Source of the DNA: Candidatus Saccharimonadota bacterium
GTDB lineage: Bacteria; Pseudomonadota; Gammaproteobacteria; Enterobacterales; Enterobacteriaceae
Assembly (NCBI GenBank): GCA_036689235.1
Contig: CP144770.1
Coordinates: 1-5,569 of the forward strand
Direction of reading: 5' to 3'
Length of the DNA: 5,569 bases
Position 1 is the first letter of the stretch; every line of letters starts with the position of its first letter. A model generated the notes under the pieces. It was given only the letters and a program-made list of their open reading frames with translations, was not told the DNA's origin and searched no databases. This document shows positions 199 to 5,462 of this stretch, one piece after another. A program made the position numbers and the translations under genes.

Positions 199-230
199 AT
201 GAATAATAAAAAAAATAAAAATAAAAATAT
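176..230. repeat. Perfect 25-bp direct repeat x2 (176-200 and 206-230, 30-bp period) straddling the repA start codon
   Basis: ATAAAAAAAATAAAAATAAAAATAT is read identically at 176-200 and 206-230. The repA ATG (199-201) overlaps the end of copy 1, and copy 2 encodes part of the N-terminal KKNKNKNI. Both copies contain the 18-nt core AAAAAAAATAAAAATAAA. Confidence 0.8.
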
Positions 231-981
231 TGGATATGCAAATAATTTTTTAACTAGTATATTAATACCATATTCAAATATATCTAAATATTATTTTGAA
301 AGAACTAATAAAAATAGTTCTTTAAAAATTATTTCTGATCCAAATTATGGATTACCATACGGTAAAATACCAAGAATATTAATGATATGATTATGTACTG
401 AAGTTATATTAAAAAAATCTCCAAAAATATATTTAGGAAAAACTCAAAATGAATTTTTTAAAAAATTAGGTTTTATACCTACTAGCGGAAAAAATGGTTC
501 AATAAATAGAATAAAAAATCAGGTTATAAGATTATTTAATTCTAAAATATCAATTATATATAAAAAAAAAAATTTGTATAAATTTAAAAATTTAAATATT
601 ATAAATAATGCTATTTTATTTTGAAAAAAAAGTAATACATTTTGAAAAAATAATATTTTATTATCTAAACAATTTTATGAAAATATAAAAAATAATTCTA
701 TAAAAATAAATTTAAAAATAATAAAAAATACAAGATCATCACTTACTTTAGATATATATATTTGATTAATATGAAAAATTAAAATATTAAAAACAAAAAA
801 ATCTATTACAATATCTTGAAGAAAAATTGAAATACAATTTAGTTTTAGTAATAAAAATTCTAATAAAAAATTATATAATTTTAAAACAAAATTTATAAAA
901 GAATTAAAATATTTTTTTTCATATTACCCAAAAATTAATATAACTTTTTTAAAAAAAGGATTAATAATTAAAAAAAAATAA
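199..981 (+). CDS. repA: Plasmid replication initiator, RepA_C type (Pfam PF04796-like), 260 aa under translation table 4
   Basis: ATG 199 is the first ATG after the in-frame TAA at 121-123. The frame stays open to TAA 979-981 if six in-frame TGA codons (388, 622, 643, 763, 772, 817) are read as Trp. The product contains GLPYGKIPRILMIWLCTEVILKKSPKIYLGKTQNEFFKKLGFIPTSGKNGSINRIKNQVIRLF, then LFW..TFW, then SSLTLDIYIWLIWK and ITISWRKIEIQF. From memory this follows the RepA_C pattern (LPYG..PRLLL.WL.TEA...I.LG.S..EF...LG..TGG..G...R...Q..RLF ... SPLALDLY.WLTYR ... IPW..L..QFG). The TGA codons fall on the conserved Trp positions. The 63-aa ORF in the supplied track is only the N-terminal fragment. 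Confidence 0.85.
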
Positions 982-998
982 AAATAAATTATTATATA
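971..998. repeat. 28-bp direct repeat, copy 1 (partner at 1106-1133); overlaps the repA stop codon
   Basis: AAAAAAAATAAAAATAAATTATTATATA is read identically at 971-998 and 1106-1133 (135-bp spacing). It shares the 18-nt core AAAAAAAATAAAAATAAA with the repeats at 176-230. Confidence 0.8.
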
Positions 999-1075
999 AT
1001 AATAACATATTAATTATATACTAATATCACATTTCCAATTAAAATTAAAGTTAAATTAATAAATCAAATCCAATT

Positions 1076-1100
1076 CAAAAACAAAACCAAAACCAAAAAT
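1076..1100 (+). repeat. Phased A-tract / CCAAAA-like micro-repeat (CAAAAACAAAACCAAAACCAAAAAT)
   Basis: A5, A4, A4 and A5 tracts are separated by C or CC at roughly 6-nt spacing. This lies inside a strongly strand-skewed stretch (1021-1100) where I counted 14 C and 1 G, between the two 28-bp repeats. Confidence 0.6.
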
Positions 1101-1105
1101 AAAAG

Positions 1106-1133
1106 AAAAAAAATAAAAATAAATTATTATATA
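1106..1133. repeat. 28-bp direct repeat, copy 2 (partner at 971-998)
   Basis: Identical 28-mer, flanked by mismatches on both sides (g1105 vs a970; c1134 vs a999). Confidence 0.8.
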
Positions 1134-1172
1134 CATTATAATAAAAACCAAATTTATAAAATATAAATAAAG

Positions 1173-1202
1173 TTAACTTTTATTTTTTTTTTATGATATA
1201 AT
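1173..1202 (+). promoter_or_regulatory. Candidate sigma70-type promoter for the polygalacturonase gene (TTAACT - 18 bp - TGaTATAAT)
   Basis: A consensus TATAAT lies at 1197-1202, preceded by an extended -10 TG at 1194-1195. The -35-like TTAACT at 1173-1178 matches TTGACA at 4 of 6 positions. This would give a 5' UTR of about 65-70 nt. TATAAT-like strings are common in DNA this AT-rich, so the call is weak. Confidence 0.3.
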
Positions 1203-1266
1203 TATTTTAATTTTTAAATATTTAAATTTTTATGTTTTAATACTTACTTTATTAAACAATTTATAT

Positions 1267-1270
1267 AGGA
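1267..1270 (+). promoter_or_regulatory. Shine-Dalgarno element (AGGA) 5 nt upstream of the polygalacturonase ATG
   Basis: The sequence is tatAGGAtttttATG. None of the other three genes has any purine-rich G-containing motif in the 20 nt before its ATG. Confidence 0.7.
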
Positions 1271-1275
1271 TTTTT

Positions 1276-1335
1276 ATGAAAAAAAGTATATATTTAATTT
1301 TAATGAGTATTTTATTTATAAATACAGCTATAGCT
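1276..1335 (+). other. Sec-type signal peptide of the polygalacturonase (predicted cleavage AIA|SG after residue 20)
   Basis: MKKSIYLILMSILFINTAIA has a basic N-region (KK), a hydrophobic core and an A-x-A cleavage motif. The mature N-terminus SGDTRNIKEP..PSSC lines up with the mature start of PehA as I recall it (SDSRTVSEPKTPSSC). Confidence 0.8.
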
Positions 1336-2517
1336 TCTGGAGATACACGTAATATAAAAGAACCTATAATTCCTTCAAGTTGTATAGTTTTAAAAGCTAA
1401 TAATAAAAATAATACTAATGAAATTCAAAAATCAATAGATACTTGTGCTAAACAAAATAAATTAGTTGAATTAAAATCTGATAATAAAAATTTTCATTTC
1501 TATTCAGGTCCAATAAATATACCTTCTAATGGTGGATTATTAATTAATAAAGGAACTATATTATCTGCTATACCCGATCCTAAATTATATGACAATGGAA
1601 ATAACAAATGTGGTAAATTAGACAATTCAGGTAAATCATGTAAACCTTTTATAATTATAAATAATTCTGAAAATAATGGAATATATGGTGAAGGAATTAT
1701 TGATGGTCAAGGTAATTCAATAATGAAAGGTAGTAATAAAACATGGTGGAATTTAGCTAGTGAAGCTCAAAAAAAAAATCAGTCACAAAATGTTCCAAGA
1801 TTAATAATAATAAAAAATTCAAAAAATTTTACTCTTTATAAAATATCATTAAAAAATTCACCTAACTTTCATGTTTCAACAAATAATGTTAATGGACTTA
1901 CAGTATGGAATATAAATATAAATACTCCTGCTGATGCCCGTAATACTGATGGAATAGATCCAGGTTCATCAACTAATGTAACTATAGCCCATTCATATAT
2001 TAGTACTGGAGATGATAATGTAGCTATAAAAGCTTCTAATGGACCTACATCATATGTATCAATATTAAATAATAATTTTGGTAAAGGACATGGAATGTCA
2101 ATAGGTAGCGAAACATTAGGTAAAGTAAATAATATTTTAGTAGATGGTTTGTCAATGAATGGAACAACTAGCGGTTTACGTATTAAAAGTGATATATCAA
2201 AAGGTGGTTTAGTAAATCTAATTACATATAAAAATATATGTATAAAAGATGTAAAAAATCCTATATATATAGATATGTTTTATAATAAAAGTGCTAAAGG
2301 AAATAAAATACCTGAATTTAAAAATATAAATTTTGATTCAGTAAAAATATTAACACCAGGTAATTTTATTTTTAATGGTATAAAAGGAAATAATATTGAA
2401 GTTATATTTTCTAATGTAAGTATAAAAAAAGGCTCTACAATAGTAATGAATAATGTTACTTCTAAAGGTAAATTAGAAGAAAATGCTACTGGAAATATTT
2501 GTCCTACAAGAAAATAA
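1276..2517 (+). CDS. pehA: Secreted endo-polygalacturonase, glycoside hydrolase family 28 (enterobacterial PehA/Peh-1 type), 413 aa
   Basis: The ORF is intact under both code 11 and code 4. All GH28 signature blocks are present: ARNTDGIDP (D225), STGDDNVAIK (D246/D247), GKGHGMSIGSE (H272) and GLRIKS (R302/K304). Long collinear similarity, recalled from memory, to Pectobacterium carotovorum PehA includes EP..PSSC..LKA, FYSGPI.IPS, NSGIYG.G.IDGQG, WW.LA, PRLI.I.KSKNFTLY..SL.NSPNFHV, NGTT.GLRIKSD and PI.ID. There is an N-terminal signal peptide and an AGGA RBS. Confidence 0.97.
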   Translation: MKKSIYLILMSILFINTAIASGDTRNIKEPIIPSSCIVLKANNKNNTNEIQKSIDTCAKQNKLVELKSDNKNFHFYSGPINIPSNGGLLINKGTILSAIPDPKLYDNGNNKCGKLDNSGKSCKPFIIINNSENNGIYGEGIIDGQGNSIMKGSNKTWWNLASEAQKKNQSQNVPRLIIIKNSKNFTLYKISLKNSPNFHVSTNNVNGLTVWNININTPADARNTDGIDPGSSTNVTIAHSYISTGDDNVAIKASNGPTSYVSILNNNFGKGHGMSIGSETLGKVNNILVDGLSMNGTTSGLRIKSDISKGGLVNLITYKNICIKDVKNPIYIDMFYNKSAKGNKIPEFKNINFDSVKILTPGNFIFNGIKGNNIEVIFSNVSIKKGSTIVMNNVTSKGKLEENATGNICPTRK

Positions 2518-2571
2518 AATAATAAAATAAATAAACAAATTCTTTAAAGAAAAAGATTAAATAAAGTAAGT

Positions 2572-2605
2572 AAATACCTTAAATCTTTTAAGATTTAAGG
2601 TATTT
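2572..2605. terminator. Bidirectional rho-independent terminator shared by the convergent polygalacturonase gene and the minus-strand ORF
   Basis: AAATACCTTAAATCT (2572-2586), a TTTA loop, and AGATTTAAGGTATTT (2591-2605) form a perfect 15-bp stem that I checked pair by pair (3 G:C pairs). T residues follow on the + strand and a T-rich run follows on the - strand. It lies 55 nt after the PG stop (2515-2517) and 9 nt from the minus-ORF stop (2615-2617). Confidence 0.75.
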
Positions 2606-2614
2606 TAAAAAAAA

Positions 2615-3424
2615 TTAAAGATATTTTATTGAAGTTTGTCTTATTCCATTTTTACAAAAAATAATAGAATCTATTTTATATATTTTTTTTTTATTTATTA
2701 AATTATTTTTATATAAATAATATTTTTTAGGTGTTACTCATCAACTTATTTTTCTTCTTTGAAAAAAACATAACATATATCCAATATTACTAATATTATT
2801 TATTTCACTTAATAATATAGAAATATTTTTATTTAAAATACAATTAATAAATTGTAATGTTTTATTACTAAATTTAAATTTTTTTATATATAAAGAAATT
2901 AATAAAAAAATTTTATTTTTATAAAAAATTTTAAATAAATTAAATATTTTAAATAAAATAATATTATTTGGAAAACCTAAAATATTTGGATAATTAATAA
3001 AAATTATTTTATCTAATTTATTTAATTTATTTAAATTATAAAAAAATTTTTTATAAAAACTATATCATTTGTAAATATTAGAACACTGATAATTAATATT
3101 TATAAAAACTTTAATTTTTAAAATATTTTTTATATAATTATATATATTATTAATATAATTTATATAATATAAAATATTAATTTTTTTAAAATTATAAAAT
3201 TTAAAATTTAAAGTTAAATTAATATTATTTTTAAAACATATTTTAATTAAATTTAAAAAAAAAATATTATTTATATCTTCATTATATTTTAATAATATTT
3301 TTATATTATTTATATATTTTATATAATTTATAATTTTTTTAAATTTTATTTTTTTATATAAATTATAAATATTTATACCTCTTATAACAGGTAAAATATT
3401 TTTTTTTTTTAATATTTTCTTCAT
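2615..3424 (-). CDS. Hypothetical protein, 269 aa under translation table 4; no family assignable by eye
   Basis: The track ORF 3065-3424 ends at a TGA (+ strand tca 3065-3067). Read as Trp, the frame continues with no TAA or TAG for another 150 codons to TAA (+ strand tta 2615-2617), passing two more TGA codons at 2741-2743 and 2738-2740 (ISWWVTP). I checked every triplet of the extension. An 810-nt open frame is very unlikely by chance in DNA this AT-rich. The start is ATG at 3424-3422, bounded upstream by an in-frame TAA, with no SD. The protein is dominated by I/K/N/F/Y/L, which limits recognition. Confidence 0.55.
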
Positions 3425-3482
3425 ACATATATTTTATTATAATTAAATATTAAATAATAATATTATTAATAATAAAATAAAT
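3425..3482. promoter_or_regulatory. 58-bp divergent intergenic region, presumed to hold the promoters of the minus-strand ORF and the GH67 gene
   Basis: It is the only space between two divergently oriented start codons (3424 and 3483). It contains TATAAT at 3438-3443 (40 nt before ATG 3483) and a 14-bp palindrome TAATAATATTATTA at 3455-3468. No element is individually convincing in this composition. Confidence 0.3.
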
Positions 3483-5462
3483 ATGATAAAAAAAAATTTT
3501 TCAAAATGTTGAATAAAAAATAAAAATATAAATAAAAATAAAATATACAAAATATTTAAAAATATTTATATAAAAAAAAAATATAATTTTATAAAAAATG
3601 AAATAATTTATTTAATAGGAAAAGAAAAAATAAAATTTAAAAATAGAATTAAAGATTCCAAACTTATATTTTTAACAAATAAAAACTTAAAAAATGAAGA
3701 ATTTATAATTAAAAATATAAAAAATAAAATATTTATTTTTTCCAAAAATAAAAATGGATTTTTATATTCTATATATCATTTATTAGAAATTATAAAATTA
3801 AAAAAAATAAATAAAAAAAATATTTACATATATGAAAAACCCAATATAAAATTAAGAATTATACAACATCTAGATAATTTAGATGGATCAATAGATAAAG
3901 GATATTCTGGAAATTCAATTTTCTTTTTTAAAAATAATATTAATTATAATTTTAATAGAATAATATATTATTGTAGACTATTATGTAGTATTAAAATAAA
4001 TAATATATGTATTAACAATTTTGATGTAAATATACCATCAACTTTTTTAATAACAAAAAATTGATTAATTCAATTATATGAAATATATAAAATATTATAT
4101 AAATATAATATTAAAATGTTTATATCAGTTAATTATCAAAGTCCTTTGATATTAGGTAAATTAAATACATTTGATCCATTAAATAAAAAAGTTATAAAAT
4201 GATGAGAAAATAAAATAGAAGAAATATATTCATACATACCTAAACTTGGAGGAATATTAATAAAAACAGATTCAAAATATAATAAAGGACCTTTATATTA
4301 TAAAAGAAATCACATAGAAGGATGTAAAAATATAGCAAAAAATTTAAAATATTTTAAAGGAATTTTAATATGAAAATGTGATATATATAAAAAACAAAAT
4401 TGAAGAAATAAGAATAAAGATAAAATATTAAATAATTATAAATATTTTAGTAAATTAAATAATAAATTACCAAATAATTTAATTTTACAAATTAATAATC
4501 CTATAGGATATCAAATAAGAGAACCAGTATCTCCTTTATTAGGAAGTATGAATAATACATCTCAAATATTAGAATTACAGATGAATCAAGAATTTACTGG
4601 ACAACAAATAGATTTATGTTGATTACCACCTCAATGAAAAAATATACTTAATTTTGATACACATTATTATAAAAATAAAAAATCTAAAATAAAAAAAATA
4701 ATTTCAGGAAAATTACATAAAAATAATAAATACTATGGAATATCAGTAATTTCTAATATAGGAAATAATTATTATTGAACTAAAAATTATTTATCACAAT
4801 GTAATATATTTAGTTATGGAAAAATATTATGAAATTTAAATATTAATTTAAATAATTTATTAAAAGATTGAATTAAATTATCATTAAGTAACAATAATAA
4901 AATAATAAAAAAAATAAGAAAAATAATTTTTAATAGCTGAAAAAATTATGAAAGATACACTACACCATTAGGATTAGGAGGTATGGTAGATCCAAAATCA
5001 AATTATAAATGTAATATAGATGGATACGAATATATAAATTCAGGTATATATCATAATTCAAATAGATATAGTATAGGATATAATAGAACTTTAAGTGGAT
5101 CAAAATTTACAAAACAATATTTAAATAAAAATTTTATAAAATTTAATAATATAAATAAATGCCCAGAAGATTTAATATTATTTTTTCATAATTTATCATA
5201 TAGTCATTTTTTAAAAAAATATAAATGTTCAATAATACAATATATATATAATTCTCATTTTAAAGGTGTTAAAAATATATATAAATGAATAAAATTATGA
5301 AAAAAAACAAAATTTTATATAAATAAAAATATATTTAAAAATGTTAAAAAAAAACTAAAGAAACAATTTAAAAATTCTATTGAATGAAGAGATAAAATAA
5401 ATACATATTTTTATAGAAAATCAGGTATAAAAGATAAATTTAATAGAAAAATATATGAATAA
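3483..5462 (+). CDS. aguA: GH67 alpha-glucuronidase homolog, 659 aa under translation table 4; the active site appears degenerate (see findings)
   Basis: From ATG 3483 to TAA 5460-5462 the frame is open when 15 in-frame TGA codons are read as Trp (3510, 4062, 4200, 4203, 4371, 4401, 4620, 4635, 4776, 4830, 4869, 4938, 5286, 5298, 5385). I translated codon by codon. It is collinear with Geobacillus stearothermophilus AguA as I recall it: LRIIQHLDNLDGSIDKGYSGNSIFF vs [39 protein letters not shown] vs YIPDFGGFVVKADS; IREPVSPLLGSM vs VREPVSPLFGAM; NQEFTGQQ vs TQEYTGQQ; PPQWKNILNFDT vs IPQWKEVLDFDT; SWKNYERYTTPLGLGGMV vs SWRIYENYTSPLGVGWMV; CPEDLILFFH vs CPDELLLFFH; and the C-terminus [26 protein letters not shown] vs [26 protein letters not shown]. 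At least 11 of the 15 TGA codons align with Trp in that enzyme. There is no signal peptide. The 101-aa track ORF 4983-5288 is an internal fragment. Confidence 0.92.

Follow-up and report, generated by a model that had tools for sequence, protein, structure and literature searches.

Candidatus Stammera capleta lives extracellularly in the gut of tortoise beetles and is a pectinolytic symbiont of cassidine leaf beetles. Its use of genetic code 4, in which UGA is read as tryptophan, is credited to Salem et al. 2017 in passages of Manzano-Marin et al. 2023 (PMC10540940), of a Codetta screen (PMC8629427) and of other works, and a study of 50 Stammera genomes annotated all of them with code 4 (bioRxiv 10.1101/2023.12.12.571295). 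The reference Stammera genome lacks prfB, the gene for release factor 2 (RF2), its trnW reads UGG, i.e. carries the anticodon CCA, and UGA occurs in 62% of its genes (PMC10540940). The Stammera tRNA-Trp with this anticodon has a 5-bp anticodon stem (PMC13092985), and a tRNA-Trp with a UCA anticodon has been reported in no Stammera genome. The DNA analyzed here is a stretch of 5569 nucleotides, contig CP144770.1 of assembly GCA_036689235.1, referred to at its full length as the window. With a probability of about 0.96 it is a plasmid of this bacterium, 5.6 kb in size and more or less complete, on which genetic code 4 operates, UGA encodes tryptophan and nearly all ancestral UGG codons have turned to UGA.

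Other bacteria that read UGA as tryptophan resemble Stammera to differing degrees. The Mycoplasmatales, Candidatus Hodgkinia cicadicola and Candidatus Nasuia deltocephalinicola have likewise lost RF2, but they encode a cognate UCA-anticodon tRNA-Trp and Stammera does not. Candidatus Zinderia insecticola, like Stammera, has a tiny, very A+T-rich insect-symbiont genome that has lost RF2 and contains no tRNA-Trp with a UCA anticodon (PMC10540940), so that UGA has to be decoded there by a tRNA with the anticodon CCA. In the Zinderia tRNA-Trp the anticodon stem is reduced to 4 bp, a change shown to increase decoding of UGA, whereas the stem in Stammera reportedly has the canonical 5 bp (PMC13092985), and therefore the Zinderia model does not account for Stammera decoding. 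Candidatus Providencia siddallii PSAC is also a gammaproteobacterial symbiont using UGA as tryptophan with only a CCA-anticodon tRNA-Trp (PMC10540940). PSAC is however transitional, in that prfB is kept, UGA is present in just 20% of genes and some UGA stops are apparently used, whereas in the window UGA is present in three of four genes and no gene ends at UGA. Stammera is among very few bacteria with UGA as tryptophan by a canonical CCA-anticodon tRNA alone.

All 19 matches to the window in PLSDB were Stammera sequences, and the best of these shared 85% nucleotide identity across 78-80% of the window (CP144816, CP043986 and CP144814, the second being a Stammera plasmid from Chelymorpha alternans). 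The order repA, GH28, minus-strand open reading frame (ORF) and GH67 is common to the window and related Stammera plasmids. By similarity and this shared gene order the window is a Stammera digestive-enzyme plasmid. It shares with Stammera plasmids CP043986, CP144814, CP144816 and CP144818 the use of TGA for Trp at orthologous positions, and is 10-20% diverged from them, representing a distinct strain. When species-representative genomes were searched with GH28 as the query protein, 17 Stammera loci were obtained, on which orthologs of GH28, GH67 and repA were found, and eight loci carried the minus-strand ORF. The features of the window are as follows.

199..981, plus strand: repA, encoding a RepA_C plasmid replication protein of 260 amino acids (PF04796, E 9e-23, residues 53-207)
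1276..2517, plus strand: GH28 polygalacturonase, 413 amino acids (PF00295, E 9e-60)
2572..2605, no strand assigned: terminator-like hairpin with a perfect 15-bp stem, located where GH28 and the minus-strand ORF converge
2615..3424, minus strand: degenerate GH5 (subfamily-8-like) beta-mannanase homolog, 269 amino acids (by profile, synteny and fold)
3483..5462, plus strand: GH67 alpha-glucuronidase homolog, 659 amino acids (PF07488, E 2.5e-102; PF07477, E 2.4e-63; PDB 1mqp, E 4e-163)

Codons were counted after re-translation of the window with table 4. Six in-frame TGA codons were present in repA (first bases 388, 622, 643, 763, 772 and 817), three in the minus-strand ORF (plus-strand positions 3065-3067, 2741-2743 and 2738-2740) and 15 in GH67 (first bases 3510, 4062, 4200, 4203, 4371, 4401, 4620, 4635, 4776, 4830, 4869, 4938, 5286, 5298 and 5385), with no TGG in any of these three genes. 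GH28 contained no TGA and three in-frame TGG codons (1744, 1747 and 1906) and is intact under both codes, so that TGG is still present on the replicon. Each of the four window genes ends at TAA, and no in-frame TAA or TAG was found in any of them, although TAA occurs 24-88 times in each of the two alternative frames of every gene. In a 21-kb chromosomal locus of a related strain (L005, from the 268-kb chromosome CP144768) all ORFs stop at TAA or TAG, which together with the window makes a small sample. Coding density was 86.5% with table 4 versus approximately 38% with table 11, which splits repA, the minus-strand ORF and GH67 into 7, 4 and 16 pieces, respectively. An earlier reading of the window made from sequence alone (the sequence-only reading) had given the same 24 TGA codons with no TGG in the three genes, TAA as the only real stop, and table 11 fragments of 63, 119 and 101 amino acids; the counts proved exact, the stops held for all four genes and the fragments were reproduced. 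Every tryptophan-containing motif that it listed for RepA_C and GH67 was also found in the table 4 translations.

Alignment to homologs, the check that the sequence-only reading had proposed, placed most TGA codons in tryptophan columns. Among 31 non-Stammera GH67 homologs with less than 80% mutual identity, Trp made up 77-100% of the column at 12 of the 15 GH67 TGA sites, and the remaining three fell in Tyr, Tyr and Leu/Met/Phe columns, against a background of 0.76% Trp at the 639 non-TGA positions. TGA fills 11 of the 14 GH67 columns with at least 80% Trp (hypergeometric P = 2e-18). Compared with 19 outgroup RepA proteins, five of the six repA sites lay in columns of 63-100% Trp (hypergeometric P = 4e-9) and the sixth in an invariant Tyr column, while two of the three sites in the minus-strand ORF lay on Trp residues of GH5 mannanases. 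In total 19 of 24 TGA codons are at Trp-dominated columns or homolog Trp residues, against a background of approximately 0.8%. No TGA site fell in a column dominated by Gly or Cys. Pfam and PDB alignments cross the TGA codons uninterrupted in one frame; PDB 1mqp (Geobacillus stearothermophilus AguA), for example, aligns to GH67 residues 82-658.

Comparison within Stammera gave a codon-level view of the same sites. All 15 GH67 TGA sites are TGG in loci L011 (CP144772) and L015 (CP144775), and in repA TGG stands at five of the six sites in L011 and L016 (CP144794); these three loci have TGG throughout, with no TGA in any gene. Swaps between TGA and TGG were observed among close relatives in all four genes, for example at GH67 positions 241, 297 and 606 in L001 and at positions 120 and 229 of the minus-strand ORF. 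These alignments are direct comparative evidence for TGA and TGG acting as synonymous codons in this lineage. Mixed usage was seen in GH67 of L013 (CP144823), with 14 TGA and 6 TGG, and of L014 (CP144851), with 10 TGA and 9 TGG. A basal Stammera clade is reported to use code 11, the standard code (gTranslate preprint). The TGA-free plasmids likely belong to this clade, and together with the mixed plasmids they fit a basal code-11 clade and graded conversion, although L011 and L015 fall apart rather than forming one group in a quick neighbour-joining (NJ) tree of GH28 and GH67. UGA recoding, put forward in the sequence-only reading as a lineage marker, is not a clean one, as the basal clade is standard-code and L011, L015 and L016 are TGG only.

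UGA as tryptophan is thus supported by three independent tests, namely the Trp columns, the interchange of TGA and TGG among orthologs and the single-frame Pfam and PDB matches. Nothing in the window contradicts this reading, and the points to be set against it are few. Only four stop codons are available in the window, and a lack of UGA stops is by itself weak evidence. Four or five TGA codons, at GH67 194, 380 and 602, repA 192 and position 229 of the minus-strand ORF, are at Tyr or Leu columns of homologs. They are read as lineage-specific aromatic substitutions because they are kept as TGA or TGG within Stammera. On the side of mechanism, no tRNA genes were found in the window and no tRNA-Trp in the 21 kb of L005, and prfB, lost in most Stammera, is reported in some code-4 assemblies (gTranslate preprint).

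Were the standard code in use, repA, the minus-strand ORF and GH67 would be pseudogenes on a plasmid in decay, interrupted by nonsense mutations, an explanation in keeping with their fragmentation under table 11, with the extremely reduced, A+T-rich genome and with the fast evolution of the minus-strand ORF (dN/dS 0.54-1.0, against 0.23-0.36 for GH67 and repA; NG86 values, skewed by the extreme base composition and of use for comparison between genes only). However, the GH67 and repA values count against it, and all 24 interruptions are TGA, with no TAA or TAG, even though TAA and TAG are 5-20 times commoner out of frame. The interruptions match Trp columns, are spanned in a single frame by the hidden Markov model (HMM) and PDB alignments and are TGG at the same sites in relatives. 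The ORFs are also open in 8-17 diverged lineages, whereas a neutrally evolving minus-strand ORF closes in more than 99% of simulated runs at 5% divergence. The Trp columns, TGG orthologs, ORF maintenance and exclusive use of TGA refute the pseudogene explanation, which retains a negligible probability; repA, the GH5-derived ORF and GH67 are intact and under selection. UGA might alternatively encode a different residue, being selenocysteine in many bacteria. It is read as Gly (code 25) in Gracilibacteria and Absconditabacteria (PMC8629427, gTranslate preprint), and Cys could also be considered. The aligned columns are however Trp, with aromatic exceptions, rather than Gly or Cys, the orthologous codons are TGG, and selenocysteine is incompatible with 24 sites in three unrelated proteins, all of which makes another residue extremely improbable. 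Finally, decoding could be leaky, with RF2 kept, UGA partly a stop and read-through by tRNA-Trp CCA yielding full-length protein as only a fraction of the product, as proposed for Providencia siddallii. Stammera has just this near-cognate tRNA-Trp, prfB is reported in some of its code-4 assemblies as noted above, and the highly expressed GH28 keeps UGG where its neighbours do not. On the other hand, 15 UGA codons in a gene of 659 codons would leave virtually no full-length product unless read-through were approximately 100% per site, neither the window nor L005 contains a gene that stops at TGA, and the reference Stammera, without prfB, has UGA in 62% of genes (PMC10540940). Leaky decoding is accordingly considered very unlikely.

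Reassignment of UGA to tryptophan would, from the literature on this lineage, have followed the loss of RF2. Extreme A+T mutation pressure has turned nearly all ancestral UGG into UGA, now its synonym; UGA is a tryptophan sense codon, and UAA (and UAG) are the stops. Literature data likewise suggest that the single canonical tRNA-Trp, with its CCA anticodon, reads UGA via a first-position C-A mismatch, and near-cognate reading of this kind without competition from RF2 is the likeliest mechanism. The sequence-only reading had proposed a search for a UCA-anticodon tRNA-Trp. This would mislead by giving a false negative, because the Stammera tRNA-Trp has a CCA anticodon only. Its refuting condition, an intact RF2 together with only a CCA-anticodon tRNA-Trp, is in its second half true of a genuine code-4 lineage. 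The classical UCA-anticodon feature of code 4 is absent from the Stammera lineage and the code change is real regardless.

The finding that UGA is tryptophan in the window is correct yet already known for Stammera since 2017, because code 4 has been published for Stammera and full-length code-4 proteins have been deposited: exact full-length products of repA, the minus-strand ORF and GH67 were present in the protein collection searched (P0001, P0085 and P0135). Public data have thus already escaped the annotation trap of which the sequence-only reading warned. A pipeline applying table 11 to the replicon will miss three of its four genes. TGA as Trp on the window matters as an annotation point only, with which published Stammera annotations and recent code-prediction tools already cope. 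Three further observations, on the UGG codons kept by GH28, on the relic of a GH5 gene and on the carboxylates lost from GH67, had no earlier account in the literature searched.

GH28 has a predicted signal peptide and the NTD, GDD, GHG and RIK motifs, and is the sole enzyme gene on the plasmid predicted to be catalytically intact. Its three TGG and no TGA contrast with no TGG and 24 TGA elsewhere in the window (Fisher P = 3e-4). Across code-4 Stammera plasmids GH28 has 22 TGG and 24 TGA (48% TGG), compared with 7-12% TGG for GH67, repA and the minus-strand ORF (P = 1e-8, uncorrected for phylogeny); put the other way, repA and the two enzyme genes with lost catalytic residues use 88-93% UGA across plasmids and 100% in the window. 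GH28 Trp157 is TGG in 15 of 17 lineages and is the sole TGG in real genes of the 21-kb L005, where gyrB, rplS, truA, eno, tyrS and gyrA have TGA only. Trp158 and Trp211 are TGG in the window and TGA in the four closest plasmids and L005. Parsimony on the quick NJ tree is tied at these two positions, with three forward changes versus one forward change and two reversions, and retention of TGG is more plausible than reversion from TGA under A+T-biased mutation. GH28 also has the highest G+C content on the plasmid (23.8%, other genes 7-14%) and the lowest dN/dS, and is reported as the fourth most highly expressed Stammera transcript. A tentative and rather doubtful explanation is that UGA, read by the near-cognate tRNA-Trp (CCA), is slower or costlier than UGG, and that codon choice is under selection which holds GH28 on UGG. 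UGG may be favoured where translation demand peaks, a pattern that near-cognate reading of UGA would predict. The retention of UGG in GH28 is a testable hint of costly UGA decoding. If true, selected UGG in GH28 would show, within one replicon, a codon reassignment that is still incomplete, and would offer a handle on how UGA is decoded by a tRNA whose anticodon is CCA and whose anticodon stem has the normal 5 bp.

The GH67 homolog departs from described alpha-glucuronidases at its active site. In AguA we take E285 to be the general acid and D364 and E392 to be the water-activating pair. These roles were reportedly established by Golan et al. in 2004 and Nurizzo et al. in 2002. In the window GH67, Lys265 (4275-4277) and Gly342 (4506-4508) replace the E285 and D364 carboxylates, although all 60 of the 60 homologs from outside Stammera have Glu and Asp at these columns, and E370, equivalent to E392, is the sole retained catalytic carboxylate of the three. 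The alignment flanking the catalytic columns has no gaps and is strongly anchored, and E285 is precisely the residue that is changed, from E to N, in the mutant PDB entry 1k9e relative to 1mqp. Both carboxylates are missing in 18 of 24 Stammera GH67 proteins and are kept only on five plasmids, including L011, L013, L014 and L015. The gene is nevertheless constrained, GH67 dN/dS against the closest relatives being 0.23-0.28, similar to that of repA. This GH67 is a family member by descent but probably not a canonical enzyme, and it may be a pseudoenzyme or an enzyme with a rearranged active site. The literature treats Stammera GH67 as a working alpha-glucuronidase (bioRxiv 10.1101/2023.12.12.571295 and others), with a presumed part in the digestion of hemicellulose.

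Neither the minus-strand ORF nor its eight-sequence alignment gave a match to Pfam, NCBIfam or PDB sequences, and in a large protein collection only Stammera orthologs were found. Orthologs are present on seven related replicons with 44-63% identity and 47 invariant positions. When their profile was compared by hhalign with an intact GH5 of L013 (CP144823), the two aligned end to end over 246 columns (probability 96%, E 4e-9). The L013 gene is itself a clear GH5 (PF00150, E 2e-30; Bacillus mannanase PDB 1wky, E 6e-74) and lies on the same strand and in the same slot between GH28 and GH67. An AlphaFold2 (AF2) model of the minus-strand ORF, of low confidence (pLDDT 58), shows eight strand-helix units, i.e. 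a (beta/alpha)8 fold, and the top three Foldseek matches to it in the PDB were the Thermobifida fusca (T. fusca) GH5 mannanase (3man/1bqc, E 1e-6, TM 0.56). In clan GH-A the acid/base Glu is found in an N-E-W motif and the nucleophile Glu in a G-E-F-G motif. None of the eight orthologs retains the acid/base Glu or the Trp next to it, both being deleted (NINYQC versus NIANEWF). Two conserved His residues, those of EVHD and SIHxYEY, have also gone, whereas six of the eight still have the nucleophile Glu and L006 and L007 have Lys instead. The minus-strand ORF has the highest dN/dS on the plasmid, and yet it is under selection, because in a neutral simulation it stays open in less than 1% of runs at 5% divergence, the observed divergence being more than 20%. 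On the profile, synteny and fold-model evidence it is a disabled GH5 beta-mannanase relic that is still held open by selection. A second, independent route of GH5 decay is suggested by L014 at approximately 4755-5581 on the minus strand, where the GH5 aligns to its intact L013 counterpart just in separate pieces that are shifted relative to one another and looks like a frameshifted pseudogene. According to the 2023 Stammera study, endomannanases are not encoded by tortoise-beetle Stammera (bioRxiv 10.1101/2023.12.12.571295). The relic in the window implies that the ancestor of the symbionts of tortoise beetles possessed a mannanase gene, which was thus not confined to hispine symbionts.

Among noncoding elements, the hairpin at 2572-2605 is the sole terminator-like site in the window, shuffled sequences averaging 0.3, and is probably a bidirectional terminator. 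In the repA-GH28 spacer a 45-nt direct repeat of 84% identity (copies 954-998 and 1089-1133, core AAAAAAAATAAAAATAAATTATTATATA) has its two copies separated by a C-rich stretch and may be connected with iterons or an origin. Immediately upstream of GH28 is the best promoter-like site, which has a TG-extended -10 (1173-1202). Neither the repeat nor this site is statistically notable in A+T-rich DNA. A promoter scan of the window gave 78 sites with 85 expected from shuffles and is uninformative in DNA of this composition, and most repeat families in the window were rejected as chance low-complexity matches. On the L005 chromosome, positions 10001-14135 hold a GH28, GH5-relic and GH67 cassette that lacks repA and lies between eno at one end and truA with a tRNA-Met at the other, and this cassette is an integrated plasmid of the kind mentioned by the 2023 Stammera study.

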